A DNA stretch of 64,000 nucleotides from Candidatus Omnitrophota bacterium (GCA_023227985.1 JALOCB010000006.1:2631-66630); one strand, 5' to 3'; shown: positions 6,577 to 31,498, counted from the stretch's first letter. The notes: generated by a model not told the origin, from the letters alone. Made by a program: numbers and translations.

Positions 6577-6591
6577 GAGGAACCGTCCCCT
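6577..6591. repeat. Right arm of the 15-bp inverted repeat (gaggaaccgtcccct); overlaps the stop codon of the giant gene
   Basis: Perfect reverse complement of 6397..6411. The TAG stop of the 6590..14779 ORF lies inside the arm. Confidence 0.7.
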
Positions 6592-9500
6592 AGCCGAGTT
6601 GAATAAGGATCTCTTTCAACTGGCCGCAGGTCGGCAAAGCGTCTTCTTCTTCCGCCTTAAGGATATCCGCCACGCAATTAGTAACCGCCTGGATCTGTTT
6701 AGAGCTATCCGGCCTGGCATTGCAGCAGGCGACATATTCCTGGATCTTTAAATACGGCATTGGCCCCTGAACCATTGATGCGCGGATCTCCATCCACTGT
6801 TTATCCAACTCTTCCAGCGCGACCGCTCCGGTAAGATTCGGCATGACCGGTATCCTCACCCCGCCTATTGCCGGCTGGCTAACTATCGGCATTCCGCGGA
6901 AATCAATACCGCCAAGTGGAGCCTGTGTTTTATCCCCACCGTCAAAAACATTATCGCCGTTATTTGTTTCTCCGCTGGGACTGCTTTTGTATTCCCGCAC
7001 ATCCCCGGTGTGTTTATCATTACTATCCCGCTTAACCTTACCCTCAGTATCCCACGCATTAAAACGTTCACCCGTAGGCATTTTGCTGCCGCCGTCCGTA
7101 TTGCTTACCGGTAACCCACTCGGCACAACCACTTGCTTATCAATTCCAACCACTACGATATCATTATTTAATTCATTTATCTTTATTTGTATCGGGAAAA
7201 CGTGATTAACCAGAACGCTTTTCTCACTTTGTTCGACCGAAGGGATAGATAATATTGTAATAGTATCAGAAGGCGTCTCTTTATACCCTATTGTTATCGG
7301 TCCATCAACGGATACATCCCCGATCACAGTCAACCTGCCGACGAAATACGCGGAGAGTTCGCCCCGGCCGATGCGTTTAGCCAGGATCATAGCCAGATCC
7401 CGGGCTTTCTTGTAATCATAAGAACCGATATTTTTGAGATTGTTTTTCAGGCCTTGAGTCGAATATATACCCGTCCCGCCGTCAGAGAGCGGGCCATTCA
7501 ACAAAACCATCATTACGCCGCTTTCGCGATACAGGACTTCTTTATTCTTCAAAATAAAATCCTTACCCGCAGGCAGGGCTATAAGCAGCCGCGCCGCTTT
7601 CAATTGCGCCTCAAAAGAAACTGTATCGTCGGTTAAAATGTCCAGCAAAGGCTTAATCTCCGGAGAATACAACGCCGCCTTCGCGTACAATTCTTGAAGT
7701 TCCGCCGATCCCCCGTCTTTTTTCTGTTTCGCAATATCCATAAGAGCAGTCAGCGCTTCTTCACGGATCGCCGCTTTTATAGTCTGATCTGTGGTAACAA
7801 ACATCAACGGGGTAAACGCAGCCGTACCTATTGCTACCAATGCCCGGCATATCGCGTAACGGTTATTAGGCATAGTTTCCGTTTTTAACGCCGCGATCAA
7901 CGGAGCAACCGACCTTTTATCTTTCCTTTGGGCCAAATCCCTGGCCGCGCTGCCGCGATTCGCTGAATTAGTATCCTTTAATTGATTATGTAAATACGCT
8001 ATGTCTGTTATACTCCCGCCGTCACGAATGTTCTTTTCCGCGAAACTCGCGTCGGTTTTAGCCAGATATCCAACCACAGCGGTAAAAAATCCGGCCATCT
8101 CAGTTTCCGATGCCTGCGCTGTAAGATCAGAAGTGAGCAACACGACCTTACGTTTGTTCTTAATCATTGATTGGACCGTCCCCAGGGTCTGAGCCTTGAT
8201 CATACTATCGGAAAAACCCCGAATATCTTTCAATAGACCGAACTCTGTGGGCTGGATCGCCTGCAAAGGAAGGAAATATGTGGAAAAGAACATATTCTTT
8301 CCATCTTCGATGTTCTGCTGATACGCGTGGTTCTTATCCGGGCCTACCCCCAATTTAGCGGGCATTTTTAGACCGCGGGTGAACACCTCGGCACGGACTT
8401 TTTCAAATATCTCTTTGAGATTATCAGTCATGTTGCCATATGAGGTGAATTCCCCAGCCTCGATCTTATGCTTAAGCAAAAGGATAATTGCCGCATAAAC
8501 AGCAGCAGGATCTTCCATTGTAGAACCGAATGCGCGCACTTGATCATTAATATCATTGATATTTACGGCCCCCATCTGGATCAACGGATCATAATAAAGA
8601 GTTAAAACACCTTTCTTGCTTGACGCCTGGTAGATATTATTAAGAACTTTTTTAACATTCCCTCCGGCGCTTATAATCTCCTTATCCATCAGCTTTGAAG
8701 CGATCTTGTATCCCTCTACCGCCGGCTGATTAACGAAACAGATATCCCACAGATACCCGAATGCTGCTACCGCTCTTTGCATACCGAGCATCAAACCGCC
8801 GATATCTTCAAGATCATTCAATGAGATTTCATACGTTGGGTATCCGTTATCCTCAAGATACTTCCAGAGATTTGCCTGAGGCTTTCTTATGCCCAGATTG
8901 ATACGCAGGAACACACGGTCATTCGAATCAACGGGGTTAAGGACAGAAACATCCAAGTTTTCTTCATCGTAGAACAACGTGATGCCTTTCCCGAACTTTC
9001 CCAAGGATTCCTCGATCAACTGTTCAGCCCACATCGGATATGATTTCAACGCCGCTGGGACAATGATCGTCAGCTTATCTTTATTAAGATCCTTAGCCAT
9101 ATGCAGCATGAAAGCGCCGAGACGGAGAAATGGATCATCTTTGATACTGTTCATCTCGATAGCGTTATCAATAATAGGGACGATCAACTCCGGAGCGACA
9201 ACAGCCATGGGAAGAAGGAACACATTGGTGCCCGGAGCGGTGAATCTTCCGCCGACATCTCCGCGGCCATTAAGCTGGATCTCCCTCTGGCGCATTGCCG
9301 GATTTTCCTGTGCTTCAACTCCCCATGGGGAAATAGTATCGGTAATGAACCAAAGATTCTTCTGCGTATCCAAACCCAAGGTATTATACACATCCTCGAA
9401 ATATTTACGGTGCGCGACAGTTTCGGGAGTTGTAGCCGATTTCGAGATCAGGACTATCGCTGTCTTATCCAAAGCCGCCTTTAAACTGCCTTCCTTTTCC

Positions 9501-12500
9501 GCTATTTCCTTCAACATGAGTGTTATGACCGTAGGGTCGGTAGTCCTCAAACTGTATATATTTTCAGCCGCTTCATTCTTGAACGTATCTTTGACGAACT
9601 GGACGCTCAAGCCCGACCCGCCCATGCCGCAGAAAATAACGTATTTATATTTTTCCTTGAGTTCTTTCCCGTCATTGATCACATCTTCAAGCGTCCTGCC
9701 GGCTGAACCGTCGCGGATCGCTTTAAGATTCGTTATGGTCCAACCCAGCCTGTTCACCCATTCGCCTTTAAGCAGCTCAAAACCAAGTTCGGATAATTTA
9801 CCATTACCGATCTTCTTTACGGCTTCATACGAAGCGCCGTTAGCCGCCCCTTCCAGCTGGCTGGTAAAATCATTAGCTTTAAGTTGATCAAGCAATTTAT
9901 TGACCTCAAAACCATATGCCTCCCCGCCGTCGCGAATGACCGGAGCGTTACGCCTGATATAAGCCAGATCTTCCTTTAACTGCGGCTCGACCCTGGCAAA
10001 GAACCGGTCATTTGTATCTTTGGTGAACGGCCTGTCGCCTATCCGCGCTAACAGCGCTTTTACAGCCGGATCCTTGCTCTTAAACCCGGCAAGAACAGCA
10101 TTGATCTCCGCGTCAGTAAGGAACATCTCGATCTCCGGCGGAAGCCCCTTGTACCTGTCGACAATAACCCTGAGCGCGGCTCTCGTACTGCCGCCATCAC
10201 GAGTTTCAGGAACAGCGGTTTTCAGATATTTTACCGCGTCTTCTGTAGCAGCGAATTTTTCGGCAGCGTTCTTTTCAATATCCTCTATGCCGGCTCCGCT
10301 GAAAAGATCGGATAACGCCTTGGTCTCCTGGGCTTCTATGCGGATGGATTTCGGGTTCAATCCGGGTTTTTCATTCCTTAATTTCAAGAACATCGATAAC
10401 ATCACCTCGGTCAATACCCGCAGGTCTTCGCGGCTGCGCGAATGAGCGCCAAAAGCGATCTTTTCCGAGGTATTCGACCAGCCCCAGTAAAATATCCCTA
10501 GCGGCGTCATAAAATAATAAACGCCCTCGATATCAACCAAAGTGAATGTTTCTTTCTGGCCTTCAAACTTTTCCCAATTTACGTATTCAAAATCTTTATC
10601 ACCGGAAAACGCCTTAGTCACAACATCCCGCCACTCGTTCATCAGGTGTTTCTTGTATTGTTCCTGCATTGAGGTTCTTTGTTCGCTGAGTGAATACCAC
10701 TGGCTGAACGCGCCTTTCTGCCGCAGGTCCTTCAAATAATCATCCAAAAGCCATTTAGGCTGCTGATGTTTTTCCCTGATGGCGGTAAAAGCCTCCAGCC
10801 AGCTGTACATAAAACGCATAGCGTCGTCGATACAAGCCCCGGTATCTATGGTAATGAACGGGTGCAAAGAATATTCCATCTGGTAGTTCTTATATCCTGT
10901 GGCCTTCACAAAATCCTCAACGGAAGCGAACCCTTTTTCTTTGGCGAGTTTCGTCATCAATATTTCTACGGTTTTCTTTTCCTTGGAATGCCCTTTGGTA
11001 TGGATTATCGCAGTACCCCCTAAATAATCCACCAATTCGGCTATAGAAGGTATCATCCGCGAATCATAATAGATTTTTTTATGGTCCTGTCCGTATTTAC
11101 CCAGGGCATACTCGATCACCGGATAAAACAGGATATCGCCTTTATAAAGCTTTCCGGCTATAACAATACCGCAGCGGTCAGTATCAAGGTCGAATGAAAA
11201 GACAACCACATCCGGATTCCTGGCAGACCAGGATAGGATACTCTCATCACCGGCGGATTTAGGATGACCCAGGCATTTGTCATCGTCCCGGGAAGGATCT
11301 GGCAGGCCTTTTGTGCAAGTTGGGTCGGACTGAGCCCTGAAAACATTCACCAGCTTGGAACCCAGGGTACCTTTAACATAATCCACATAGCTGGTCGCTG
11401 AGCCTCCGCCGAAATCCACGGCGATCTTGATATCCATATCCTTGAGTTTGTTAATAAGAGCTGTAAATTCAACGTTCAGCTTTTCCTTATATATATCGGT
11501 GATCTTGCCCTGCAACTCCTGGGTATTGATAAACGCGCCCATATCCTTAGCGTCCATGACCCTCAAACCGCTATCCGCGCTGTCCCCGGCGATCTGCTTG
11601 CCCAGGACCTGGATCATATCCCCGAAAAGCGTGGTCTTGCCGATGATCGGTTTAAACCCGTTTATACCGACCTCTACATGCGAACGAGTAACATAGAACC
11701 CGCCCTGTACACCCAAGCGGGAAACCGTGGTATACAATTGGCCGCTTATACAAGTATCCAGATCTATTACGTTGATCCCGGCAGCACGCAAACCCAAAGC
11801 CAGGTATTTGCGCATTTTCGGGGTTGTCGGTCCATTATCACCGGCTATTATAAAGGTATCGCCTGGTTTTAATCCTTCAGTGCCATGGTGCGAATCAAAC
11901 TTTGATGTTCCCAGGGCAATACCCAGTAAAACCAGCATTTCCGGGGTAAAATATTCGTCGTTGCCGCGGACATCATATTCTTTAAGGACTGAAGACAGTT
12001 TCTTCTTTATCTCCTGCAATCCCTCATAGGTCACGGTTATTGTTTCATCAGGGGTTGTGATAACCAAAGGTTTCTCCGGAGTAATCCTAAATAAACCCGG
12101 GGCCTGTCCGGGGTTTTTTATCTGCCCGTTGATGATCGATTTAGCCTGGCTGATCAATTCGTCGGCCTTTCCGCCGTCGAAATTGGCAGAGACTCCGCCT
12201 TTATCCAGCCTCTGATTGATCTTTGCGGACGCTTCTTCTATCGCTCTTTTCATGAGGATATCGTTGCCTTCCGGCTGGCTGGCGAATGCTTCCAATGTCC
12301 TGCGCTCGCCGGTTCTCTCTCCTAAGACCTTAACCGCATTAAGCCTGATCAACCTGTTATTACCGGTATCTTTAAAAGCTGCGATATATATCCGCTCTAT
12401 ATCCCGATTATTAAGCCCCAATTGTTTTAAAGACATCTCAGCCGCGGGATAAATGTCGTAATTATCACCCAGCACAGTCCAGACCAAATATTCTCTTAAA

Positions 12501-14779
12501 TACGGTATCGCTTTAGCATCTCCAAGCTTGCCCAGGATACGCGCAGCATCCTCTTTATTTCTACGCATAGTCCGCGGATCGCTAATTTCTTTAATATATT
12601 TATTCGCCTGCCACGGGATAACCGTACTTTTCCACAACGAAACGAACGTCCGGATGAAGATATTGGCCGGATCATACTTATTCTCGCGCAGCAATCCGTT
12701 GTCCGCAGCGCCGCCGTCAGGCGTTCCAGGCTCAACAGGTACGCCGAATTTCAGATCGCGCAGGGAAAAATCTCCCATAACGCGGTCAAGCCAAGGCAGA
12801 GCTCCCTTATGCAGAAAGTAACCGATTGCGCCCAAAGACAACCCCACAGATACGCATATCACCAATATTTTTACCGGTAACGGCATGAACATTGAAACAG
12901 CAATACCTATCAAGCCCGAACCCAAACCTGCCCCCATAAGCTTTCTGGTAGGATATTCCTTGCTGGACTGCTCTTTTACAAATGCCTTGAATTCATCGAA
13001 CTCCGCCCGGTTGTTAAAACTGCTCTCAAACTCAGCCTGTATGGAATCCAGATGATTTTCCCAGGTATAACCGGAAATAGCCGCATCAAAATCATCAATT
13101 CTTTCCAGCAGAGCTAAACCACCAAGTTTACGAAGCAATTTTCCCTTTCGTTCAAGAGAAAGAATCCCTGCCCCTTGTGCGCTTCCTCCATCACGATGGG
13201 AATTACCCAGTATTTTCCCGACTTCACTGTAATATTCGCTTGTAAGATCGCGCACAGGGATATCCCTGGCGATCAATTTATAGAAACTATACCCGCCGGC
13301 TATCCCTAACAATGCTGTCACCGCCGACCCCATGATCATCGGCAAAAACACTGGCCCGGTTATCAGTAACGCCCCAAGAGTTAATCCCCCGACAATCGCA
13401 AATGCACCAAGCATAAGCGCGGTGTTGGCTTTCCTGGCAAAAAACCAATCATCCAGGTCTTTTGTATTGATCGCCGCCAGCGCCGTATTAATCTCATTCT
13501 GCGTGTATTTATTATCCTGAATAAGGGTTTTAATCCGCGCCAGACGCCGGTCCACAAAGTCCCGGTCAGCCGAGCGCATCCAATTGATCTCTTGGATGGC
13601 GGAACTGAGTTCATCGGTCCTGGAACGCTTTGGGGCAAAAACGCCGCCGTCACGGGTTTGTTGATCCTTATGTACCGGTTGGTAATTCTTACCCTCAACC
13701 GCCAGAACATCAGCGGGCACGATCGAAGTTTTCTGAGGGATTACCGCGATTTCAGTGACAGTATCAGGTATAAGCATAATACCGCCGCTAAAATATCTGC
13801 GCACGGTTATCCCGTTCAGGCTGTTCACGGTTTCCCGGGTATTATATTCACCGTCAACAAAAGATTTCCGATAGGCATTAAAATAATTATCTTTAGACCA
13901 GGCGCTGCGCGAGGAAAGTCCGGCAAGGTCCTCCTTGTTTATCCGGCGGCTGTATTCCGCAGGCATATTTATGGCATTCTTCTTGAACCATTGGGCCAGG
14001 ACTATGGAATAATATACCTGCCTCAAGGGCGCGTACTCCTTGGCGCTGTTAATTTTTTTGGTTAATTTAGGGAGGATTGCCTCGCGGATCAAACCGGAAG
14101 AATATTCATTCAACTCCTTAAGGCGCGGATCGTCAAATCCATAAGTAGCGGAATTCTTCAGGTGATCCTGCTCCAGCATAACCTTTAAGGTCGCTTTATA
14201 CACATACGCGCTGTCAGCCGACTGCTTGACGATTATCTCGCCCGGAACTATCCAGGGGCGGGTCAAGGTGGGGATATTGATCTTTTGGTTTCCTAAAAGG
14301 CTTTCAGCCTTTTCGTACAGCCTCTTCCAATAGATCTTTCCTTCCCTGGTCTTGGGAGAAGTGGCCATAGCCATATCTTTTTTCAACTGAAGGTCTGCTT
14401 CCAGGAGTATCTTCCCGATATCAGTATTCTCCAATGCCGGGTCAATGATATCACTCTTGCCGTCCGGACGCAGATTAACCCAGAAAGTATTATTAGGCAA
14501 AGTCACGCCGATCTGAAAATATTCCATCAGTTTGGCTATAGACCCCTTAAGCTGCGCCGGCTTAACATTCTTATTGTCGCCTTTATCAAGCAAAAGGGTG
14601 AAATCATCCTTGATCCGGTCATAAACCAGGGACCTCAAATGCAAGGGGCGGAATTTATTGATCGAAGACACGCTGGAGAATGATCCGGAAAGATCAATTA
14701 CGTTCGCAACCTGGGCAAACCCAATTTGCTCGAATAAGAAAACAAAACTTATCAAAAACGCGATTATCTTTTTAAACAT
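6590..14779 (-). CDS. Giant (2,729 aa) secreted/membrane multidomain protein with PGM-like and PGI-like domains, HEAT-type repeats and four predicted TM helices
   Basis: Single uninterrupted ORF. N-terminal signal peptide (MFKKIIAFLISFVFLFEQIGFAQ). Hydrophobic helix pairs at aa ~452-500 and ~614-658. The alpha-D-phosphohexomutase-like region (aa ~935-1320) has DVRG, a TASHNP-like FYVTRSHVEVGINGFK and an FDGDxDR-like FSFDLDTDRCGIV. The PGI/SIS-like region (aa ~1700-2030) has GMGGSG, ISKSATTPET, GGRFT and VNQPAVEGYK, which resembles PGI signature 2. HEAT/PBS-lyase-like repeats lie at aa ~735-850 and ~2260-2410. DGG occurs 11 times. Confidence 0.8.
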   Translation of the reverse strand: MFKKIIAFLISFVFLFEQIGFAQVANVIDLSGSFSSVSSINKFRPLHLRSLVYDRIKDDFTLLLDKGDNKNVKPAQLKGSIAKLMEYFQIGVTLPNNTFWVNLRPDGKSDIIDPALENTDIGKILLEADLQLKKDMAMATSPKTREGKIYWKRLYEKAESLLGNQKINIPTLTRPWIVPGEIIVKQSADSAYVYKATLKVMLEQDHLKNSATYGFDDPRLKELNEYSSGLIREAILPKLTKKINSAKEYAPLRQVYYSIVLAQWFKKNAINMPAEYSRRINKEDLAGLSSRSAWSKDNYFNAYRKSFVDGEYNTRETVNSLNGITVRRYFSGGIMLIPDTVTEIAVIPQKTSIVPADVLAVEGKNYQPVHKDQQTRDGGVFAPKRSRTDELSSAIQEINWMRSADRDFVDRRLARIKTLIQDNKYTQNEINTALAAINTKDLDDWFFARKANTALMLGAFAIVGGLTLGALLITGPVFLPMIMGSAVTALLGIAGGYSFYKLIARDIPVRDLTSEYYSEVGKILGNSHRDGGSAQGAGILSLERKGKLLRKLGGLALLERIDDFDAAISGYTWENHLDSIQAEFESSFNNRAEFDEFKAFVKEQSSKEYPTRKLMGAGLGSGLIGIAVSMFMPLPVKILVICVSVGLSLGAIGYFLHKGALPWLDRVMGDFSLRDLKFGVPVEPGTPDGGAADNGLLRENKYDPANIFIRTFVSLWKSTVIPWQANKYIKEISDPRTMRRNKEDAARILGKLGDAKAIPYLREYLVWTVLGDNYDIYPAAEMSLKQLGLNNRDIERIYIAAFKDTGNNRLIRLNAVKVLGERTGERRTLEAFASQPEGNDILMKRAIEEASAKINQRLDKGGVSANFDGGKADELISQAKSIINGQIKNPGQAPGLFRITPEKPLVITTPDETITVTYEGLQEIKKKLSSVLKEYDVRGNDEYFTPEMLVLLGIALGTSKFDSHHGTEGLKPGDTFIIAGDNGPTTPKMRKYLALGLRAAGINVIDLDTCISGQLYTTVSRLGVQGGFYVTRSHVEVGINGFKPIIGKTTLFGDMIQVLGKQIAGDSADSGLRVMDAKDMGAFINTQELQGKITDIYKEKLNVEFTALINKLKDMDIKIAVDFGGGSATSYVDYVKGTLGSKLVNVFRAQSDPTCTKGLPDPSRDDDKCLGHPKSAGDESILSWSARNPDVVVFSFDLDTDRCGIVIAGKLYKGDILFYPVIEYALGKYGQDHKKIYYDSRMIPSIAELVDYLGGTAIIHTKGHSKEKKTVEILMTKLAKEKGFASVEDFVKATGYKNYQMEYSLHPFITIDTGACIDDAMRFMYSWLEAFTAIREKHQQPKWLLDDYLKDLRQKGAFSQWYSLSEQRTSMQEQYKKHLMNEWRDVVTKAFSGDKDFEYVNWEKFEGQKETFTLVDIEGVYYFMTPLGIFYWGWSNTSEKIAFGAHSRSREDLRVLTEVMLSMFLKLRNEKPGLNPKSIRIEAQETKALSDLFSGAGIEDIEKNAAEKFAATEDAVKYLKTAVPETRDGGSTRAALRVIVDRYKGLPPEIEMFLTDAEINAVLAGFKSKDPAVKALLARIGDRPFTKDTNDRFFARVEPQLKEDLAYIRRNAPVIRDGGEAYGFEVNKLLDQLKANDFTSQLEGAANGASYEAVKKIGNGKLSELGFELLKGEWVNRLGWTITNLKAIRDGSAGRTLEDVINDGKELKEKYKYVIFCGMGGSGLSVQFVKDTFKNEAAENIYSLRTTDPTVITLMLKEIAEKEGSLKAALDKTAIVLISKSATTPETVAHRKYFEDVYNTLGLDTQKNLWFITDTISPWGVEAQENPAMRQREIQLNGRGDVGGRFTAPGTNVFLLPMAVVAPELIVPIIDNAIEMNSIKDDPFLRLGAFMLHMAKDLNKDKLTIIVPAALKSYPMWAEQLIEESLGKFGKGITLFYDEENLDVSVLNPVDSNDRVFLRINLGIRKPQANLWKYLEDNGYPTYEISLNDLEDIGGLMLGMQRAVAAFGYLWDICFVNQPAVEGYKIASKLMDKEIISAGGNVKKVLNNIYQASSKKGVLTLYYDPLIQMGAVNINDINDQVRAFGSTMEDPAAVYAAIILLLKHKIEAGEFTSYGNMTDNLKEIFEKVRAEVFTRGLKMPAKLGVGPDKNHAYQQNIEDGKNMFFSTYFLPLQAIQPTEFGLLKDIRGFSDSMIKAQTLGTVQSMIKNKRKVVLLTSDLTAQASETEMAGFFTAVVGYLAKTDASFAEKNIRDGGSITDIAYLHNQLKDTNSANRGSAARDLAQRKDKRSVAPLIAALKTETMPNNRYAICRALVAIGTAAFTPLMFVTTDQTIKAAIREEALTALMDIAKQKKDGGSAELQELYAKAALYSPEIKPLLDILTDDTVSFEAQLKAARLLIALPAGKDFILKNKEVLYRESGVMMVLLNGPLSDGGTGIYSTQGLKNNLKNIGSYDYKKARDLAMILAKRIGRGELSAYFVGRLTVIGDVSVDGPITIGYKETPSDTITILSIPSVEQSEKSVLVNHVFPIQIKINELNNDIVVVGIDKQVVVPSGLPVSNTDGGSKMPTGERFNAWDTEGKVKRDSNDKHTGDVREYKSSPSGETNNGDNVFDGGDKTQAPLGGIDFRGMPIVSQPAIGGVRIPVMPNLTGAVALEELDKQWMEIRASMVQGPMPYLKIQEYVACCNARPDSSKQIQAVTNCVADILKAEEEDALPTCGQLKEILIQLG

Positions 14780-15022: not shown

Positions 15023-15517
15023 TTATTGCCCTTCTTCCAGATATTTTCCCAAAATAGCCCAGGTTTCACTGCCCACAACCCCGTCCGCGTTCAACTGGTT
15101 AGCTCTTTGGAACTCCCGGATCGCGTCTTTTGTCCTGGGGCCTATCTTTCCGTCAACATCCCCATTATAAAATTTCGCGTTCTTTAAGGCTGTCTGGATA
15201 TGTCCGGCATTCGGGACTTTTATGACGGTTTTTTCTTCACGCTGTTTCCGGACCTGGCTATTTATCTTATTCTGCGCGTCTTCTAATTTTGCCTGATTCG
15301 CTTTAAGCGCGGCCTCGGTCTTTTCCTGATCTTCCTGGACCTTAATTTCTAAACTCTGCTGCCTCTTGCTCAAGCTCTTGACCTCGGCGTCCTGGCGCTG
15401 GAATTGGCTCTCCAGCGAGATGATCCGCAATTGAGTCGCCTCCATATCCTGCACGCCCGCACAACCGGATAATAAAACAACGGAAAGGCCAACAAAGGAA
15501 ATAATAGCCAGTTTCAT
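15023..15517 (-). CDS. Lipoprotein with a coiled-coil region and a C-terminal peptidoglycan-binding domain
   Basis: Lipobox LLSGC after the signal peptide. Q/E/K-rich coiled coil. The C-terminal part (LKNAKFYNGDVDGKIGPRTKDAIREFQRANQLNADGVVGSETWAIL) matches a PG_binding_1-like repeat. Confidence 0.7.
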   Translation of the reverse strand: MKLAIISFVGLSVVLLSGCAGVQDMEATQLRIISLESQFQRQDAEVKSLSKRQQSLEIKVQEDQEKTEAALKANQAKLEDAQNKINSQVRKQREEKTVIKVPNAGHIQTALKNAKFYNGDVDGKIGPRTKDAIREFQRANQLNADGVVGSETWAILGKYLEEGQ

Positions 15518-15587
15518 CTCTTTCTCCTTTTTGTCGTTATCCTTCTTAATCTTATTTTATACCTTTGCCGGCCGGTTGTAAATATAC

Positions 15588-17801
15588 TTATATGAGCGGC
15601 TCCATATTCAGGACCGGATGCTTTACCTTTTCCAGGTAAGCTACCAGCTCCTCGGCTGTGGTAACATTGGTCTCATCGGCTATCTGGTCAACCAGGCCGG
15701 GCATACCCAGTTCCCGGCAGCGCGTCTTCAGCTTATCGCCCAGAGCCTCTTTCAATTCCTTTGGCATCCAGACCAGCCGCGGCAGTCCGCCTTCAGCGGA
15801 AAGGAATTTCTTGCTGGCCACATAAAGCTTGCCGATACCCAGGAAACCCGGGGTCTGCACCCCTCCGCCAACCGAGCCGGCCAGCGTGGTAAAAGTCATG
15901 CCCACCGGGGTCATCCCGGGAAAATCGCGGTGCACGATCATTACGCCGTTGGCCTCAGGGACCACAGCCACAATGCATTCAAAACAGCCGCAGGACGACT
16001 GCGGGCTGTCCATCAACGAATACATACTCATCTTCTCTATCGTTTTGTTGGATTTCTCATAAACATAATCGTTTATATTCTTCCACTGCCCCAGTTTTTG
16101 ATCGAGCAATTGGCCTTTTTCCACCGGCTGATTAGGGCCGGTAGGGTTGATCTCATGCGAAGCCTTGCCGTCCAGCCAGGAATAAGCCCCGCACAGGCCG
16201 AGCCTTTCCGCGGAGATCATACACACATGGTTGGGCGCGAAACTCTGGCAAAGCGTGCAGGAATAAAAAGAGTCCACGCTTTCATCGGTCATACCCAGGA
16301 TCCTCTCATCGCGCTGATCGTAGACTTTCTTAGCCTGGGGCAAAAGCTTATCCACATCAGCCTGGCTGGTATAGATTTTTACCTGGATCTTATCCACGAT
16401 AGCGCTGTATTCCTGATGAAGCATAGCGTGCAGGATAACCCCGATATGCTTAAGGCGGAAGCCCTTATTGAACGCCTCCTGAGAAACTCTGATCCAGTTC
16501 ATATCGCGCTGGCCGATATGCATTATACCCTGGGCGTAATTGACGAACCTGTGGATCTGGCGCTCAAGTATAGGCTCGAAATCTTTTTGCATCTTCCGGC
16601 CGGCGACTTCAACCATGATCGCCAAAGGCAGAGATTTCACGCCCTTTCCCATATTATCTATATCCGGTCCGATCACCTCTACCTTCCCGTCCTCAATATC
16701 CTCTATATTCCCGCTGGTAAGGAACTCGAACGAGGCGGAAGCCTTACCGCCGAATTCAGCGAACAATTGTTCCTTGCGCACCCTTTCACCCTCAAAAGCC
16801 GCGGCGTAAGCCACCGGGACATTGATCTGGGCGACCTTAACTTTGATCCCCCTGGTAAGCAGGCATTTGGAAACCAGTTTTTTGTAGTCTTTTTCAGTAA
16901 CCAGGGCCTCATATAAAGTCGTATCGATCTTGGGCAACTGCGGCACATCCAGGTCGGTGATAATGGGCACGCCGAAGGCCAGCGCCCCCAGCCCCGCCGC
17001 CACGATGATCTCATCCACGTGGCTCAAAAGCACGATGAAAGCCGGAACCCTTTTCTGCACATAATCCGCGATACCCTGCCACTGCCCGGGTTTGAAACCG
17101 CCGTAGATGAGCGGCGCTCGGATGGCGAAGTTCACCGCGTAGATTGCCGAGAGATAATCGTCGCCGAGCGGCACAATATAGTTATCCAAGCCGATCTGCA
17201 CTCCTTTTTCTTCGAGCTGTTGGGCGAAGGTTTTGCCGTTGGCGCTGTCCCCGGCTTTATCGGAAGCGCCGGGACTCGCCGGTGCGCTGCCGCAGAGCAG
17301 GCAAACGATGCTGTTAGTCTGGAAATCGCGCACCAGCTTTTCCGCGGAATCCGCGTCCTTTGCCGGGCCGAGAATGACGGCGACGCCCGCGATGCGGCCG
17401 TCTACCAGCTGAATGCCCAACTGCCTCAGTATCTTGTCCGGGATGAAGCCGATTCCTCCCTTGGGATGCTGTTTGGTCGCGGTCAACAGCGCCGTAAGCA
17501 TTTCGATCGCCACCAGCGTGGCGCAGCCCTTGTTCAGCACCGGACCAAGCGCTCCGGGGATAGAAAAGCCGTTTGCGGGCTTGATATTCTTGTTCAGCCC
17601 CTCGGCAGCCGCCAGGATCGGCATACAGTCCCCTACAGTCTTGACCTCGGCGTTGAACAGCCCGTAGATGATGGGCAGGAAATAGTTGGTCTCGGGAAAG
17701 CCGACCGCGGTATCCTTGCCGGCCTTTTCCAGCGTTTGCCTGGTCAATGCCAATACCGCGTCCGCGCCTTTTGTTCCCATTTGAACTAATACCTCAGACA
17801 T
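15588..17801 (-). CDS. acsB: Acetyl-CoA synthase catalytic subunit (CODH/ACS subunit AcsB/CdhC type)
   Basis: 737 aa. Full-length resemblance to AcsB, including the A-cluster region SCGCFECIVAV (Cys-Gly-Cys) and an upstream Cys. Start overlaps the upstream oxidoreductase gene by 8 nt. Confidence 0.85.
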   Translation of the reverse strand: MSEVLVQMGTKGADAVLALTRQTLEKAGKDTAVGFPETNYFLPIIYGLFNAEVKTVGDCMPILAAAEGLNKNIKPANGFSIPGALGPVLNKGCATLVAIEMLTALLTATKQHPKGGIGFIPDKILRQLGIQLVDGRIAGVAVILGPAKDADSAEKLVRDFQTNSIVCLLCGSAPASPGASDKAGDSANGKTFAQQLEEKGVQIGLDNYIVPLGDDYLSAIYAVNFAIRAPLIYGGFKPGQWQGIADYVQKRVPAFIVLLSHVDEIIVAAGLGALAFGVPIITDLDVPQLPKIDTTLYEALVTEKDYKKLVSKCLLTRGIKVKVAQINVPVAYAAAFEGERVRKEQLFAEFGGKASASFEFLTSGNIEDIEDGKVEVIGPDIDNMGKGVKSLPLAIMVEVAGRKMQKDFEPILERQIHRFVNYAQGIMHIGQRDMNWIRVSQEAFNKGFRLKHIGVILHAMLHQEYSAIVDKIQVKIYTSQADVDKLLPQAKKVYDQRDERILGMTDESVDSFYSCTLCQSFAPNHVCMISAERLGLCGAYSWLDGKASHEINPTGPNQPVEKGQLLDQKLGQWKNINDYVYEKSNKTIEKMSMYSLMDSPQSSCGCFECIVAVVPEANGVMIVHRDFPGMTPVGMTFTTLAGSVGGGVQTPGFLGIGKLYVASKKFLSAEGGLPRLVWMPKELKEALGDKLKTRCRELGMPGLVDQIADETNVTTAEELVAYLEKVKHPVLNMEPLI

Positions 17802-18699
17802 TTAAACCTCCTATTGCTTGGCTTATATTATCCGCTAAGCGGACGCTTTCATTTAAAACATCATCCCAATTCTTTGTTTTATCCGGCAAGCCTTGGGCCC
17901 CGGCTGCCGCTCCGCAGGCAAAAACATTTTTCAGGTTAGTACGCAAGTTGGCATCCACGCATACGCCGCCCCCGGATAATTCAATATCCGTGTCTTTTAG
18001 GAAATCTACGGCCGGTTTGGCCGGGCTGTCGAATACAACCACCAAAGAGGCGCCGATGATCTTGCCCTCTTTAAGCTTTATCGCCTGGACCCCGGACTCG
18101 CCGATTATATCAGTCACCTTGCTGTTAATAAACTCCAAATGCTGCATCTGCGCCGGGCCTTCGACAGGCTGTTCGGTCACCGCCTTAACCTCTTTCTGCT
18201 GGCCGGTGATCGCTTTGGCGATCTCTTGCGCCCAGGGATTCCACCCCAGGAAACACACTGTATCCGAAGATAAGAGATATTTGCGCGCCTGTTTAAAATC
18301 GTTTAATGAATCCAACCGGATCACGCCCTCTTTATTTATGCCGGGTATATCCGGCAGCGTTGTTTTAACCCCGGAGCAGATGACCAAAAAGTCATATTCG
18401 GCGTTTCCCCGGGTTTCCTCGTGTTTAAAGTAAACCAGGCGGCGGTTGGTATTAATGCCGTAAACTTTTCTCTCTTTCAGGAATTTTATGTTCTGGCCGG
18501 CGTAATGATCGGCGTTAACAAGGTAAAGCTCTTTTTCTTTGGTCCCGCCTGCCAGATACGCGGGCAGCTTGCGTTTGTCATAACAAGGGGACGGTTCATC
18601 GGTGATCAGGGTTATTTCGCAATCCTTGTTCTTTTGCCGCAAAGAAATAGCCGCTGTATGTCCGGCGATCGACGAACCGATAATAATTATTTTAGGCAT
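17794..18699 (-). CDS. Short FAD-dependent pyridine nucleotide-disulfide oxidoreductase (Nox/CoADR-like, single Cys)
   Basis: N-terminal IIIIGSSIAGHTAA (FAD Rossmann fold). SPCYDKRKLPAY is an SxxxC...LPY-like single redox Cys. A second dinucleotide site is VCFLGWNPWAQEIA. A C-terminal FACGAAAG is present. At 301 aa it lacks the usual dimerisation domain. Confidence 0.6.
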   Translation of the reverse strand: MPKIIIIGSSIAGHTAAISLRQKNKDCEITLITDEPSPCYDKRKLPAYLAGGTKEKELYLVNADHYAGQNIKFLKERKVYGINTNRRLVYFKHEETRGNAEYDFLVICSGVKTTLPDIPGINKEGVIRLDSLNDFKQARKYLLSSDTVCFLGWNPWAQEIAKAITGQQKEVKAVTEQPVEGPAQMQHLEFINSKVTDIIGESGVQAIKLKEGKIIGASLVVVFDSPAKPAVDFLKDTDIELSGGGVCVDANLRTNLKNVFACGAAAGAQGLPDKTKNWDDVLNESVRLADNISQAIGGLNV

Positions 18700-18704
18700 G
18701 TTTA

Positions 18705-19583
18705 TTATAAACCCGCGGCATCCAACACCAGGGGGACTTTTTTATCCCAGCCGATCGGCATTATATGTATCCCCTGGCACATCGGCCGCAATTGTTTGAT
18801 CAGGCGGCTGGCGATAGCCACGGACTGGCTGACTTTATCCTTAGTCTCTTCCATTTCCTTGATCAATTCATCGGGGACAGAGACCCCGGCGACATTCTTG
18901 TTCATAAACCTGGCCATGCCCGCGGACTTCAACAGGACAATGCCCGCCAGGATCGGGACTTTCAGGTGTTTGGTCTTGGAAAGGAAATTCTCAAAGATAC
19001 CCGCATCATATATAGCCTGGGTCTGAAAGAATTCCGCGCCTGCTTCGATCTTTTTTTCCATCTTGATGATCTGCGGCTCGATCGGGTCAGCCCCGGGATT
19101 GACTACCGCGCCTACGCAAAATTCAGGGGCGCTCCCTTCAAGCTTATTGCCGTTCATATCCGCGCCTGCCTGCAACTGTCTGACTACCTGCAAAAGCTGG
19201 ACCGAATCCAGGTCAAATACCGGCTTGGCCTGCGGATGGTCGCCTAATGTCGGATAATCTCCGGTCAGGATCAACAAGTTCTCTATCCCCAATGCAGCGG
19301 CGGAAAGGATATCCGATTGCAAGGCCAAGCGGTTGCGGTCGCGGCAGGTAACCTGGAATACCGGGTCAAATCCTTTTTGCTTGAGCAGGCTGGAAACAGC
19401 CAACGACCCCAGGCGCATTACCGAACTCTGCAGATCAGTCACATTTATCGCGTCAACCCGGGTGCGGATCAACTCCGCGTCTTCCAGCAATTTAACGGTT
19501 TCTATCCCTTTAGGCGGGCCGATCTCGGAAGTAAGAACAAAACTCCCCTGTCTTATCTTTTCTTTAAAGGTCATAAGAAACAC
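18705..19583 (-). CDS. metF: 5,10-methylenetetrahydrofolate reductase
   Basis: 292 aa TIM-barrel MTHFR. Motifs VTCRDRNR, LILTGDYP and the FAD-binding region. Confidence 0.85.
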   Translation of the reverse strand: MFLMTFKEKIRQGSFVLTSEIGPPKGIETVKLLEDAELIRTRVDAINVTDLQSSVMRLGSLAVSSLLKQKGFDPVFQVTCRDRNRLALQSDILSAAALGIENLLILTGDYPTLGDHPQAKPVFDLDSVQLLQVVRQLQAGADMNGNKLEGSAPEFCVGAVVNPGADPIEPQIIKMEKKIEAGAEFFQTQAIYDAGIFENFLSKTKHLKVPILAGIVLLKSAGMARFMNKNVAGVSVPDELIKEMEETKDKVSQSVAIASRLIKQLRPMCQGIHIMPIGWDKKVPLVLDAAGL

Positions 19584-19671
19584 CCCTGTTTATGTTACGG
19601 CTGGTTTCCCGTTCACGCGGGATATTGATTAAGGACTTTATTTTAACCGTAATACGCGTTTTTGTCAAAAA

Positions 19672-20838
19672 TTATTCCTTCAGCCTTAAGCCGGCCACCA
19701 CCTCGAAATGCCCGGTATGCGGGAACATATCCACCGGGATAACCCGCTCCAGCGAATAAGAGCCGCACAAAAGTTTAAGATCTTCCCGCAAAGACATCGG
19801 ATTGCAGGATATATATATGATCCGTTTCAGCCGGATATCCAGAAGGCTCTTCTTGAACTTTTTGCTTAAACCCACGCGCGGAGGGTCAATAACCGCAACC
19901 TGGGCATCTTCAATATAATCGCTTTCCTTAAGTCCGGCGAGGAACGTGTCGGCGTCCAGGCAGGCGAATTCGACATTATCAATTTTATTCAACCTGAGAT
20001 TTTTCTCGGCGTTGGCGATATTGAACGCCGAATTATCGACCCCGATTACCCTGGAAGAATTTCCGGCGAGCTGTAAGGTTATCCCTGCGCTTCCGCAAAA
20101 AATATCCAGGGCCGTGCCCGGCGCGTCTTTTACTTCATCCCGGACCACAGCGTATAACTTTTGGCAGCAATAAGGATTAGTCTGAAAAAAGGTCTTTGGC
20201 CCGATCAGATAATCGATCCCGTTGATGTTTTCCCGGATGTCATCATCTCCGGACAGATGCATCAATTCATCGGTGAGGGCTTTATCCGATAATAATTTAT
20301 TGAAGCAAAGATAGACCGACCGGACATCCGCCGCGGACATTAAGCGTTCGGCCAGAGCAAAGAATTTATTTTTTTCTTTGTCAAAATCCTCCCTGGTCAG
20401 GGCAACGGTTATTACCGCCATTATTGAGCCGTAAGCTTTCGAATGCCGCAAGGAAATATACCTTAACTCACCCGAAGATGTGCGCAGGTCATAAGGAATA
20501 ACTCGGAAGTCTTTTATCCACAGCTTACAGGCATCGAATATCCGGTCAAGCCCCTCTATAAATACACGGCATTCTTTCAGGTCGATGATCTGGGAGAATT
20601 TGGCTTTCTCTCTCTGCCCTATTATCGCTCCGGAGCTGTCCCGGGAGAATACGAATTCCATCTTATTGCGGAAATACCAGATCGGCTGCGAAGGGATTAT
20701 CTCTTTTATTTCGCCGGGGTTAAAACAGGCGAGGAGATTACGGCAATATTTTTCCTTGAATTGGAGCTGTTTCTCATAATCCTGATCCTGCGAATCGCAG
20801 CCTCCGCAGGAATTAAAATGCCGGCAGATATCTCGCAT
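19672..20838 (-). CDS. 23S rRNA (uracil-5-)-methyltransferase, RlmC/RumA family (no TRAM domain)
   Basis: The N-terminal 4Fe-4S cysteines are CRHFNSCGGC. The SAM-MTase core has DIFCGSAGITL, with the catalytic region (ISCNP) near the C-terminus. Confidence 0.75.
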   Translation of the reverse strand: MRDICRHFNSCGGCDSQDQDYEKQLQFKEKYCRNLLACFNPGEIKEIIPSQPIWYFRNKMEFVFSRDSSGAIIGQREKAKFSQIIDLKECRVFIEGLDRIFDACKLWIKDFRVIPYDLRTSSGELRYISLRHSKAYGSIMAVITVALTREDFDKEKNKFFALAERLMSAADVRSVYLCFNKLLSDKALTDELMHLSGDDDIRENINGIDYLIGPKTFFQTNPYCCQKLYAVVRDEVKDAPGTALDIFCGSAGITLQLAGNSSRVIGVDNSAFNIANAEKNLRLNKIDNVEFACLDADTFLAGLKESDYIEDAQVAVIDPPRVGLSKKFKKSLLDIRLKRIIYISCNPMSLREDLKLLCGSYSLERVIPVDMFPHTGHFEVVAGLRLKE

Positions 20839-21007
20839 AAAACTGACCTTACCATTTTTTAAAGATAACGGGAACCTCCAGGGGGATCACATCCTGGATG
20901 GTTTTAACTGCGTGGCGGATAACTGGCAGGAACCGATACGGTTAGCCGGGGCATAGGAGCAGTATTCAGCCAGCGCTATCATACATCTGGCCATTATAGC
21001 AGTATAC

Positions 21008-21844
21008 TTAAAGTTTTGCCGCTTCCACCAGGTTGCGCATAAGCATGGTAACGGTCAAAGGCCCTACCCCTCCCGGCACAGGAGTGATCCAGGAAGCGCG
21101 TTTCTGGGCCTCATCGAACTCCACGTCTCCGACGATCTTATCCCCGACCCGGTTTATGCCGACATCTATGACCACCGCGCCCTCTTTTATCCATTCGCCC
21201 TTGATCAATCCGGCCTTGCCCACCGCGACAATAAGGACCTCGGCGCTCTTGACATGCTCCTCTAATTTACCGGCCTTGGCCGTGCCGATATGGCAGACCG
21301 TTACCGTGGCCAGCTTTTCCAGCAGCAGCAGGCTTAAAGGCTTGCCGACTATCTCGCTGTGCCCGACAATAACAACTTCCTTCCCGGCGAGATCCAGGCC
21401 GGTGGCGCTCAATAATTCCATAACCGCGTTGGCGGTGCAAGGCACTATCCTGGCTTTGCCGAATACGATCTTGCCCATGTTCGCCGGATGCATCCCTTCC
21501 ACGTCTTTATCCGCAGAGATGAAGCCGCTGATCTTCTTATAATCCATATGCAAAGGCAGAGGCATCTGCACGATTATGCCGTTCACCGCCGGATCATTAT
21601 TAAGATTTCCTATATACTCAATGAGTTTTCCTTCGGTAGCCTGGCTATCCAGTTTGTGCAGCTGGTAATCGACGCCTAAAAGCTCGGCGTTCTTCTTCTG
21701 CGACTTTATATATGATTCCGCGGCCGGATTCTCCCCTACCTGCACGCTGGCCAGCTGAGCCTTTTTTCCCGAGCCCAGGATCTTCTGTTTGATACTCTCT
21801 TTTATTTTTTCCGCGATCGGCTTACCCTCTAATAATTTTGCCAA
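21008..21844 (-). CDS. folD: Bifunctional methylene-THF dehydrogenase / methenyl-THF cyclohydrolase
   Basis: 278 aa. Motifs GIIVQMPLP, the HIGTAK/VIVGHSEIVGKP NAD(P) site, and PVPGGVGPLT. Confidence 0.9.
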   Translation of the reverse strand: MAKLLEGKPIAEKIKESIKQKILGSGKKAQLASVQVGENPAAESYIKSQKKNAELLGVDYQLHKLDSQATEGKLIEYIGNLNNDPAVNGIIVQMPLPLHMDYKKISGFISADKDVEGMHPANMGKIVFGKARIVPCTANAVMELLSATGLDLAGKEVVIVGHSEIVGKPLSLLLLEKLATVTVCHIGTAKAGKLEEHVKSAEVLIVAVGKAGLIKGEWIKEGAVVIDVGINRVGDKIVGDVEFDEAQKRASWITPVPGGVGPLTVTMLMRNLVEAAKL

Positions 21845-22379
21845 CTTTAACCTCCATCTGCTGTCTGATTTTTCTCACAACCTTACCCTTTTCGTCCAGC
21901 TCTTTCCTGATCCCCTTTGCCAGTTCCGGGTCGTTAAGATATTTAAGGTTTATATCCACATTGACATACGCGCTGAAAAAAGCCGACTCCAGCAATACCG
22001 CTGCCACCGCCACGTCGCTGATCAGGTTCTGATTGCTCTTTCCCAATATAAGCGGGCAGATATCTATCGCCTCAAAACAAAGCCGGCAGACCATAAGCGG
22101 CACATCCATGGATTTCCGCAGATCCTTGCTGCTATAGGCGGTAACATCCAGATCGACAAGATGCAGGAATTCCAAACGCAGTTTTTCGGATTTATCCAGG
22201 CACTTCTTAAGCTGGCTTTCATATTCGGCGTATTTCGGCTTGCCCACGGTGAAATTAAGCACCATGCTGATCAAAGCTGATCCTAAAGCCGCGCTCATCG
22301 CTGCGGCGGATCCGCCTCCGGGAGCGGGTAATTTCCCAGCCAGATCATCCAGGTATTTTTTAAGGTGATTTCCGTACAT
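21822..22379 (-). CDS. fchA: Cyclodeaminase/cyclohydrolase family protein (FtcD C-terminal-like; methenyl-THF cyclohydrolase FchA-like)
   Basis: 185 aa, all-helical. PAPGGGSAAAMSAALGSAL is the typical motif of the formimidoyl-THF cyclodeaminase family. Lies immediately upstream of folD and overlaps it. Confidence 0.7.
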   Translation of the reverse strand: MYGNHLKKYLDDLAGKLPAPGGGSAAAMSAALGSALISMVLNFTVGKPKYAEYESQLKKCLDKSEKLRLEFLHLVDLDVTAYSSKDLRKSMDVPLMVCRLCFEAIDICPLILGKSNQNLISDVAVAAVLLESAFFSAYVNVDINLKYLNDPELAKGIRKELDEKGKVVRKIRQQMEVKVGKIIRG

Positions 22380-22389
22380 TAGGCTCTCC

Positions 22390-22761
22390 TTATATCTCTT
22401 GGATCTCGAACGCGTTCTTGAGCAGCTCTGTTTTCCAGGAGCCTTGGAACGGGCTTACTGAAACGACATCGAACCTGGCCCCGGCATCTAAAAGTCCTTT
22501 TTCTTTCAGGAAAAGCGTCGCGGCCCGGTATATCTTGCCTTGCTTGCGCCTGTCTATAGCCTCTGCCGGCTCTCCAAACCAGCCGGATAAGCGGGTCTTT
22601 ACCTCAACAAAACAAAACGTATCCTTATCCCGGGCGATAATATCGATCTCGGCGGACATGGTCCGGTAATTCCTGGCCAGGATCTTGTAGCCTTTACGCT
22701 TCAGGAACCTGACCGCCTCATCTTCGCCCTGACGGCCTAAGAGGATATTTTCTTTAGACAC
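22390..22761 (-). CDS. yraN: YraN/UPF0102 family endonuclease
   Basis: 123 aa. Motif GEIDIIA...FVEVK. Confidence 0.7.
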   Translation of the reverse strand: MSKENILLGRQGEDEAVRFLKRKGYKILARNYRTMSAEIDIIARDKDTFCFVEVKTRLSGWFGEPAEAIDRRKQGKIYRAATLFLKEKGLLDAGARFDVVSVSPFQGSWKTELLKNAFEIQEI

Positions 22762-26730: not shown

Positions 26731-27108
26731 TCAAACGAGGGTATTCTGTTCTATGCAATAAATAAGCTTATCCACGGGAACCGGCTTTGCCAGAAACGGC
26801 CTTCCGGAGATGATCCCATTTTGATCCCTTACTTCTCTTTCCGTAACGATAGCGGTCAAGAATACGATGGGTATGTTCTTCAGATCCTCATCCGATCTGA
26901 GCTTCTGGGATATTTCGCCGCCATCAACATTCGGCATAACGATATCCAAAAGGATCAGGTCAGGCTTGAATTCCTTTACCGTGCGGATGGCATTGACGCT
27001 TTGGCTTTCAGCCCTGACCTCGTATTTGCCGGTTTCCTCCAGGTTCAATTTCACCATCCTGCAAAAACTCTCTTCATCGTCGATTATGAGGATCTTTTTT
27101 CTCGGCAT
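26731..27108 (-). CDS. Single-domain response regulator (receiver only)
   Basis: 125 aa. ILIIDDEE, the phospho-acceptor DLILLDIVMP, and the K in LAKP. Confidence 0.85.
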   Translation of the reverse strand: MPRKKILIIDDEESFCRMVKLNLEETGKYEVRAESQSVNAIRTVKEFKPDLILLDIVMPNVDGGEISQKLRSDEDLKNIPIVFLTAIVTEREVRDQNGIISGRPFLAKPVPVDKLIYCIEQNTLV

Positions 27109-27142
27109 TTTCAGCCTCCCTTTCTCTTAAAGATGCCAAACG

Positions 27143-28408: not shown

Positions 28409-28435
28409 AACGACGGGTGCTGCTGAAGGGAGTTA

Positions 28436-29188: not shown

Positions 29189-29203
29189 ATGCCTTTACGC
29201 TCC

Positions 29204-30040: not shown

Positions 30041-30371
30041 AGAGGTCTATGGGTTTATACATTACGTCTTTTTCATTATAACCCAATCCCAACAACTCAT
30101 CAATATCTTTCTGGAGACCTATTGACCCGCTTAAGATTATGACCGGCAGCTTTATCCCCGCGTCATTCAATCCCCTCAAAACATCCATGCCGGTCATTTT
30201 AGGCATGCGCATATCTATGATCAACAGGTCCATCTTGTCGCCGGACTTTAATATATTCAGCGCCTTGTCGCCTTCCAGGTTTTTAAAAACTTCAAACCCT
30301 TTCTTGCGCAAAAAGACGTCGATTATATTCACTATCTCCTGCTCGTCATCTACTACCATTATTTTAGGCAT
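29988..30371 (-). CDS. Single-domain response regulator
   Basis: 127 aa. IMVVDDEQE...LLIIDMRMPKMTG. Confidence 0.85.
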   Translation of the reverse strand: MPKIMVVDDEQEIVNIIDVFLRKKGFEVFKNLEGDKALNILKSGDKMDLLIIDMRMPKMTGMDVLRGLNDAGIKLPVIILSGSIGLQKDIDELLGLGYNEKDVMYKPIDLFEILAKVKEKLGENEDK

Positions 30372-31107: not shown

Positions 31108-31108
31108 A

Positions 31109-31471: not shown

Positions 31472-31482
31472 TGTTCCCTTCT

Positions 31483-31497
31483 CAAGACCCGGTCTTG
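31483..31497. repeat. 15-bp palindrome CAAGACCCGGTCTTG, copy 1
   Basis: Perfect palindrome around a central C. Lies in the 27-bp gap between the hybrid HK stop and the REC start. Confidence 0.7.
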
Positions 31498-31498
31498 A

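Follow-up and report, generated by a model that had tools for sequence, protein, structure and literature searches.

What does an acetyl-CoA synthase (ACS) do when no carbon monoxide dehydrogenase (CODH) is encoded beside it, and what is the flavoprotein whose gene precedes it? These questions are raised by a 64,000-nt stretch of a Candidatus Omnitrophota genome (GCA_023227985.1, JALOCB010000006.1:2631-66630; hereafter the window, with positions counted from its first letter), in which the ACS gene acsB follows metF and a gene for a 301-aa oxidoreductase. An earlier note, made from the sequence alone, had described an acsB without CODH or corrinoid partners, co-transcribed with metF and a truncated flavoprotein of the Nox/CoA-disulfide reductase (CoADR) type. 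It had compared the locus with the incomplete Wood-Ljungdahl pathway (WLP) of Dehalococcoides and had proposed the flavoprotein as electron-input partner of MetF. The gene order it gave, with an 8-nt overlap between the last two genes, was confirmed from the window, where the three genes run head-to-tail:

15588-17801, minus strand: acsB, 737 aa, with the Pfam domains CODH_A_N, CdhC and ACS_CODH_B_C
17794-18699, minus strand: truncated FNOR-derived protein (the flavoprotein), 301 aa, with Pyr_redox_2 as its only Pfam domain
18705-19574, minus strand: metF, encoding a methylenetetrahydrofolate reductase (MTHFR), 289 aa from ATG, PF02219

The overlap reads ATGTCTGA and the gap between metF and the flavoprotein gene is 5 nt; the spacing suggests that flavoprotein and AcsB are translationally coupled. 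A Pfam search of all 57 large open reading frames (ORFs) of the window found no Prismane/CODH, CdhD (AcsC/D), Pterin_bind (AcsE), CooC-type CbiA or FTHFS domain. The genes cooS, acsC, acsD, acsE, cooC and fhs are thus absent from these 64 kb, and the earlier statement that no acsA/cooS, acsC, acsD, acsE or cooC lies near acsB was borne out.

An AcsB without CODH is already published for this group at the level of gene inventories. Seymour et al. 2023 (PMC10066038) listed 24 Omnitrophota species that lack AcsA and CooS/F, yet encode AcsB-E, Fhs, FolD and MetF, in the families Velamenicoccaceae, Profunditerraquicolaceae, DTHP01, FEN-1320 and CAIMPC01; the genome of Velamenicoccus archaeovorus is among them, and CO and formate were proposed as substrates. 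An AcsB identical to that of the window occurs in Candidatus Omnitrophota metagenome-assembled genomes (MAGs; GCA_041653715.1, accessions MCK9594463.1 and MFA5373180.1). The window AcsB is 72% identical to that of B70_G16 and 67% identical to that of UBA6233, both placed by the same study in Velamenicoccia; Gygaellales; Profunditerraquicolaceae (GTDB f__UBA6249), and the window clade probably belongs to Velamenicoccia / Profunditerraquicolaceae. Since AcsB-E are reported for the family, the lack of corrinoid partners probably holds for this locus only; in most related loci that contain cooS, acsCDE also lie off the locus. This part of the earlier description is therefore correct at the locus and probably fails beyond it. 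We add that the flavoprotein derives from FNOR, of which it is a retained, cofactor-degenerate relic that is fused to AcsB in relatives, and we add a signature of CODH loss confined to the N-terminal domain (A1) of AcsB. FNOR, of COG1251 type, belongs to the CooS-CooF-FNOR module, which is known as a CODH module, though biochemically uncharacterised (Whitham 2015, Geelhoed 2016, Inoue 2019; PMC6344411).

The CODH genes are missing from their ancestral position

We compared the locus with 80+ related loci (L numbers below). The 80 best among GTDB species genomes came nearly all from Omnitrophota. The gene frame rnhB-yraN-(fhs)-fchA-folD-...-metF-...-acsB-...-polA-glgA-coaE-rho is conserved across the phylum, and the ancestral order inside it appears to have been (fhs)-fchA-folD-metF-(cooC)-cooS-cooF-FNOR-acsB. 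In L040, metF is followed within the rnhB...polA-glgA-coaE-rho frame by CooS (635 aa, Prismane/CODH), CooF (149 aa, two [4Fe-4S]), FNOR (421 aa, Pyr_redox_2 plus Rubredoxin_C) and acsB, and the FNOR stop overlaps the acsB start by 8 nt, as in the window. In distant relatives, whose AcsB is 54-62% identical, about 2.5 kb separates metF from the flavoprotein homologue. In some genomes the entire pathway is encoded in a single cluster, fhs-fchA-folD-metF-cooC-cooS-cooF-FNOR-acsB-acsC-RACo-cooC-acsD-acsE; ERZ1426832, L062, L069 and L075 have the complete ancestral arrangement with acsC-RACo-cooC-acsD-acsE.

The loci form a stepwise series. From the full cluster (step 1), acsCDE are relocated away from the locus (step 2); cooS and cooF are then gone with FNOR still at full length (step 3; L053, 448 aa; L032, 401 aa). 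FNOR is next shortened to ~290-308 aa (step 4; the window and at least 12 species), and finally ~115-135 residues remain in frame with acsB (step 5; ~18 species, ORFs of 843-865 aa). L005 has the entire 300-aa form fused to AcsB. In more than 35 species, contiguous contigs show the cooS-cooF deletion exactly at the ancestral position. The truncated and fused loci group as a single clade, which is nested among cooS-bearing lineages, in neighbour-joining (NJ) trees built from AcsB and from MetF+AcsB+FolD, and L053 represents a separate and more recent cooS loss. The 300-aa and fused forms are interspersed in these trees and all fused forms have the same N-terminal boundary; the resolution of the NJ trees is too low to count independent fusion events, and we claim no convergence.

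As a separate observation, Omnitrophota CooS is unusually conserved: the best 120 matches to the CooS of L040 (6362-8269) were all at least 85% identical to it, and the AcsB proteins encoded beside such CooS in the same lineages differ by 30-45%.

The flavoprotein is a degenerate FNOR

At the orthologous position in L035-L067, FNOR adjoins cooS and cooF, which establishes the descent of the window flavoprotein from FNOR. By sequence it is the orthologue of the 420-450-aa FNOR encoded between cooF and acsB in related loci, and the label Nox/CoADR-like no longer fits. The junction motif ATGTCTRA was found at 14 full-length FNOR-acsB junctions as well as in the window, indicating that the C-terminal domain of FNOR was lost by an internal deletion that kept the 3' junction with acsB. 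The protein is truncated and lacks the C-terminal dimerisation domain, as the earlier note had seen, and it ends at residue 301, compared with ~421 in full-length FNOR. The features of the relic are as follows:

18661-18678, minus strand: N-terminal dinucleotide-binding motif GSSIAG, the family-typical GxSxxG, retained
18031-18363, minus strand: former NAD(P)H-binding Rossmann domain, residues 113-223 of the relic, delimited by alignment and fusion junctions
18229-18246, minus strand: degenerate NAD(P)H site, GWNPWA instead of the GGGLIG of full-length FNORs
17899-17919, minus strand: degenerate FAD 'GD' motif, ACGAAAG instead of TAGDVCE

Full-length FNORs carry GNSAAG, the NAD(P)H site LGGGLIGLK, the AGD motif and the C-terminal domain. 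In every truncated form GxGxxG and the GD Asp are replaced, the C-terminal domain is gone and ~14 residues after a conserved EVK are deleted. NAD(P)H oxidoreductase activity thus appears very unlikely. Within the 300-aa family, G8, S10 and G13 of the N-terminal motif are at least 90% conserved, and the former NAD-binding domain (residues ~113-223) holds seven of the ten invariant columns. The Pfam score for Pyr_redox_2 was 99 bits. An AlphaFold2 model (predicted local distance difference test, pLDDT, 94.4; predicted template modelling score, pTM, 0.90) matched CoADR, persulfide reductase and putidaredoxin reductase with template modelling (TM) scores of 0.84-0.88 (Foldseek), minus their C-terminal domain. 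In place of the single Cys reported earlier we counted six (residues 27, 39, 108, 149, 247 and 262); none aligns with the redox Cys of CoADR/Nox, and an Arg stands opposite the catalytic Cys of 3CGB.

Two other identities were rejected. A Nox or CoADR identity would call for the SFxxCGLPY Cys (Cys42/43) and a dimerisation domain, which are not present, and the NCBIfam CoADR model scored 89 bits against a cut-off of 458. A thioredoxin-reductase-type FNR gave just 26 bits with TRX_reduct; the best matches were NirB-N, rubredoxin-reductase, CoADR and FNOR types.

The fused forms locate the part that is under selection. In ~18 species they keep exactly the residues equivalent to ~113-223 of the window protein, that is, the former NAD-binding Rossmann domain. 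In many of these species the Met of AcsB and its Shine-Dalgarno sequence (AAAGGAGA) persist inside the reading frame. In L022, L023, L026, L028 and L031 both are lost, so AcsB could be produced there only as a fusion. From the retained domain and the obligate fusions, the selected function of the relic would be tied to AcsB and would reside in a domain without a recognisable cofactor site.

These data bear on the proposal that the 301-aa protein feeds electrons to MetF. The 5-nt gap to metF, the lack of a nearby metV and the conserved N-terminal dinucleotide-binding motif, with which FAD binding would be possible, agree with it. Against this, no truncated form retains the NAD(P)H site or the GD Asp, and the ~18 fused species keep only the former NAD domain, attached to AcsB. 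The conserved linkage is likewise to acsB rather than metF: in ancestral-type loci cooC, cooS and cooF lie between metF and FNOR, and FNOR always abuts acsB. In L071 no flavoprotein gene lies between metF and acsB, which adjoin directly; L081 shows this order as well, and in L076 only a partial metF is visible, at the contig end. We therefore regard a role as MetF subunit as highly improbable.

That the gene is a functionless pseudogene in decay is barely credible, even though its cofactor motifs are degenerate, its length shrinks progressively across lineages, the ORF is split in two loci (L003 and L059) and the gene is absent from L071 and L081. The ratio of nonsynonymous to synonymous substitution rates (dN/dS) was 0.11-0.15 against three close relatives (dS 0.4-0.9), similar to rlmD (0.14) and folD (0.05-0.11) in the same comparison; metF gave 0.03-0.07 and acsB 0.05-0.06. 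Homologues fell into 64 clusters, nearly all of 289-321 aa, the predicted fold is confident, the frame stays open across 35-50% identity, and some of the AcsB fusions are obligatory. These results indicate that the flavoprotein gene is not a pseudogene and is under purifying selection.

AcsB keeps its A-cluster ligands and is remodelled in its CODH-docking domain

AcsB scored 979.8 bits with NCBIfam NF040764 (PRK09529; cut-off 800), and its best match in PDB was the ACS of Carboxydothermus hydrogenoformans (1RU3/7ZKJ, E = 8e-208). The features that matter for its function are:

16842-17801, minus strand: domain A1 (CODH-docking, CO-tunnel), residues 1-320, remodelled in the window's clade
16191-16259, minus strand: A-cluster [4Fe-4S] ligand motif CTLCQSFAPNHVCMISAERLGLC, residues 515-537, Cx2Cx8Cx9C, including the F512-equivalent alcove Phe
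15984-15992, minus strand: Cys-Gly-Cys motif binding the two A-cluster Ni ions, residues 604-606

The Cys spacing is identical to that of C506/C509/C518/C528 in the ACS of Moorella thermoacetica, a numbering that we take from established knowledge and the alignment. Judged by these motifs, the A-cluster ligands of AcsB are intact.

Eighteen cooS-linked Omnitrophota AcsB sequences were then compared, domain by domain, with 34 from the truncated clade. A1 was the most conserved domain in the cooS-linked group (within-group ratio A1/(A2+A3) 0.77) and the most divergent in the cooS-less clade (1.28). The p-distance between the groups came to 0.58 in A1, 0.30 in A2 and 0.25 in A3. A2 and A3 contain no fixed differences and no columns conserved in the cooS-linked sequences alone; the 37 and 23 positions of these two kinds are all in A1. 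The same shift of A1 was seen in the independent cooS-less lineages L081/L076/L071, L061 and L064, and weakly in the recent L053, while A1 is conserved in every cooS-linked outgroup. Such A1-specific remodelling is expected if the CODH partner is truly gone and not merely encoded elsewhere.

The latter possibility, a cooS/acsA at another site and a canonical bifunctional CODH/ACS in which gene order alone has changed, therefore seems rather unlikely. It draws on the frequent unlinking of pathway genes, as acsCDE are already separated from acsB in most Omnitrophota loci, and on the fact that MAG-based inventories can miss genes. It leaves unexplained why the deletion falls precisely at the ancestral cooS-cooF site in so many species, and why the slowest AcsB domain of cooS-linked lineages becomes the fastest only where cooS is missing. 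The 24 published species without AcsA or CooS/F, V. archaeovorus included, also speak against it. Among the best 120 of ~8,000 CooS matches, none was linked to a contig carrying this clade's acsB, which is a weak argument.

Most residues of the CO alcove are preserved in AcsB. Five hydrophobic residues line the CO alcove of M. thermoacetica ACS, G145, I146, V149, F229 and F512 (PMC11321310). The window enzyme keeps G129, I130, V133 and the F512 equivalent, with Y233 in place of F229. Across the clade the G145, V149 and F512 positions do not vary, Leu replaces I146 in 20 of 35 members, and the F229 position is Tyr in 28 of 35, compared with Phe in 25 of 25 cooS-linked sequences. This retention suggests that AcsB is probably still selected to handle CO.

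A1 of the window AcsB also contains a low-complexity insert of 21 aa (SAPASPGASDKAGDSANGKTF; AcsB residues 172-192, window 17226-17288, minus strand). In C. hydrogenoformans ACS a 19-residue gap covers most of this stretch.

The methyl-branch genes and the surrounding window

The metF product has an MTHFR TIM-barrel (PF02219, 127 bits; C-terminal half of PRK08645, 257 bits), matches Thermus MTHFR distantly and is 65-87% identical to its relatives. The longest ORF spans 18705-19583 with a GTG start; the ATG at 19574, as gene-called in the identical MAG contig (L001), is the likely start. No metV partner was found beside metF in the window or in related loci among ORFs of at least 80 aa. As the earlier note had stated, fchA and folD lie upstream:

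19640-19668, minus strand: promoter-like site TTGACA-17-TAAAAT just 5' of metF, 11/12 to the sigma-70-like consensus, a consensus match only
19672-20838, minus strand: rlmD/trmA-like RNA uracil-C5 methyltransferase, between folD and metF, in the window's sub-clade only
21008-21844, minus strand: folD (Pfam)
21822-22379, minus strand: fchA, cyclohydrolase (FTCD_C), from profile matches

With a strong promoter-like site in front and no convincing terminator found inside metF-flavoprotein-acsB, a single three-gene transcript is plausible. The claim of co-transcription stands to that extent, as a deduction from spacing and these signals.

The methyl-branch genes also bear on whether AcsB might only cleave acetyl-CoA to supply biosynthetic methyl groups, releasing CO. 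According to the account of Zhuang et al. 2014 given in a passage of PMC7005905, Dehalococcoides mccartyi lacks metF and acsE, and its AcsB and AcsCD cleave acetyl-CoA for the methyl groups of methionine. The reversibility of the ACS reaction and the shared lack of CODH make such a role conceivable in Omnitrophota. Here, though, metF is intact, evolves under strong constraint (dN/dS as above) and adjoins acsB in the same putative operon, so the methyl-supply rationale of D. mccartyi does not apply. Moreover, with folD and fchA upstream and with Fhs and AcsE on record for the family, methyl-tetrahydrofolate would be obtainable without AcsB. We consider this alternative unlikely, and the resemblance to Dehalococcoides drawn earlier fails at its central point.

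Several further observations concern the neighbourhood. A GC-rich hairpin (TCCCGCGTGAACGGGA) lies at 19607-19622, after the promoter-like site and ahead of the start codon, within the predicted 5' untranslated region of metF. Between rlmD and folD, a 35-aa ORF (20887-20994, minus strand) is the remnant of a DMT_6/DUF486 membrane-protein gene; the close relatives L086 and L088, and ~10 other loci, have this gene complete (109 aa), located between folD and rlmD or metF. In many relatives (L005, L009, L023, L025, L027, L040 and others) fhs, for formate-tetrahydrofolate ligase, sits between yraN and fchA; in the window (21822-22761) yraN abuts fchA and fhs is not at that position.

Directly 3' of acsB, L086 (12377-20326) and L088 (12334-20282), whose AcsB is 96-97% identical to that of the window, carry a block of ~8 kb encoding Rex, a NuoE/NuoF/HydA-type (bifurcating-like) [FeFe] hydrogenase, a HydS-like sensor and a SpoIIE phosphatase. 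The whole hydrogenase block is missing from L087 and from the window (15518-15587). Next to this site in the window, a small coiled-coil / PG_binding_1 lipoprotein-like gene (15023-15517) precedes the gene for a 2729-aa protein (6590-14779, minus strand) with HEAT repeats and PGM_PMM_I, which resembles the 'big ORFs' of Omnitrophota. The length of this giant protein differs by strain (2807 aa in L087, more than 3453 aa in L086).

The rest of the window is housekeeping in character: it comprises rho, coaE, glgA, polA, rplS, trmD, tgt, glgP, queA, ruvB, infB and nusA, as well as proS, ispG, dxr, uppS, purA, serA, many response regulators and the HEAT protein. Histidine kinases and response-regulator receiver proteins, the latter both stand-alone and in tandem, are densely encoded at 26731-36769 (minus strand); the same block contains a PilB/T2SSE ATPase that carries a receiver domain at its C-terminus (34285-36390).

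Discussion

We read the locus as a degraded Omnitrophota WLP cluster in which AcsB is free-standing and the flavoprotein is an FNOR relic that serves as partner of AcsB and not as donor to MetF, and we give this reading a probability of about 65%. As the earlier note had supposed, AcsB most likely works without a CODH partner, judging from the syntenic cooS-cooF deletion, the A1 remodelling and the published inventories. In the proposed sequence of events, cooS and cooF were deleted in place in the window's clade, and AcsB would have persisted as a free-standing acetyl-CoA synthase in which only the CODH-docking N-terminal domain was remodelled. The enzyme would join CO that does not come from a CODH of its own with CoA and a methyl group, and the latter may arrive from formate through Fhs, FchA/FolD and MetF, and then through AcsE and a corrinoid protein encoded elsewhere. 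AcsB could also run in reverse and cleave acetyl-CoA. This mechanism takes up what Seymour et al. proposed and the precedent of free-form ACS fixing CO directly in Thermodesulfatator indicus and Archaeoglobus (bioRxiv 10.1101/2025.10.29.685450). The relic FNOR would most likely be a non-catalytic or redox-minimal partner of AcsB, translationally coupled to it or, in relatives, fused.

Some points weigh against this reading. The genome-wide absence of cooS and the presence of acsCDE and fhs rest on a published family-level inventory and on the indirect signal of A1. The relic seems dispensable in some lineages, being split into two ORFs in L003 (6779-7593), the closest GTDB species with 76% AcsB identity, and missing between metF and acsB in L071 and L081. 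It is likewise split in L059 (7593-8870), and the splits in L003 and L059 may be either real pseudogenisation or MAG assembly errors. Finally, as the N-terminal GxSxxG is conserved, residual flavin binding or a redox role of the relic is possible.

More tentatively, and short of what we would call probable, the former NAD-binding Rossmann domain may have been exapted after CODH loss as a non-redox ACS subunit that replaces CODH as structural partner of A1. It might, for example, cap the former CODH interface or gate the entry of free CO to the tunnel and alcove, and in ~18 species it would have become a covalently fused N-terminal domain of AcsB. If so, a pseudo-enzyme domain was recruited into one of the oldest metalloenzymes.

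A CODH-less ACS has already been documented in Dehalococcoides and in the Omnitrophota inventories. The locus offers a stepwise natural series, from the full CODH/ACS-FNOR cluster through cooS/cooF loss and a degenerate FNOR to a domain fused to AcsB. It nominates a testable accessory protein for free-form ACS, and it has implications for the direct fixation of CO and for the cycling of CO in anoxic habitats. The A1 signature may serve as a marker, readable from sequence, for an ACS truly without CODH partner, which is useful for judging incomplete MAGs.

Compared with known systems, the locus is closest to the partial WLP of the V. archaeovorus type (PMC10066038), which comes from the same phylum and probably the same family, lacks AcsA and CooS/F and keeps AcsB, MetF and FolD. 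That publication is a gene inventory, in which the in-place deletion of cooS-cooF, the FNOR relic, the AcsB fusion and the N-terminal remodelling do not figure. With the incomplete pathway of D. mccartyi, the sole common point is an AcsB without neighbouring CODH, which for the window extends to the genome as a whole by inference; the window differs in that metF adjoins acsB and in that AcsE is reported for its family. The canonical operon of bifunctional CODH/ACS unites acsB with acsA/cooS and usually with acsC, acsD, acsE and cooC, none of which is in the window, and the window metF has no adjacent metV as in the MetFV-type MTHFR of acetogens. The free-form or monomeric ACS of C. hydrogenoformans (ACS-alone structure 1RU3) is likewise a three-domain bacterial ACS acting without bound CODH. 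That organism, like T. indicus and Archaeoglobus, encodes CODH and can form the complex, whereas the locus in the window has lost the CODH gene and its AcsB has a diverged docking domain. As for the CooS-CooF-FNOR module, the window lacks CooS and CooF, and neither the NAD(P)H motif nor the GD Asp nor the C-terminal domain is left in its FNOR. The window flavoprotein is nevertheless the orthologue of that module's FNOR, and in related Omnitrophota loci the full module stands at the same position, inside the WLP operon and directly upstream of acsB.

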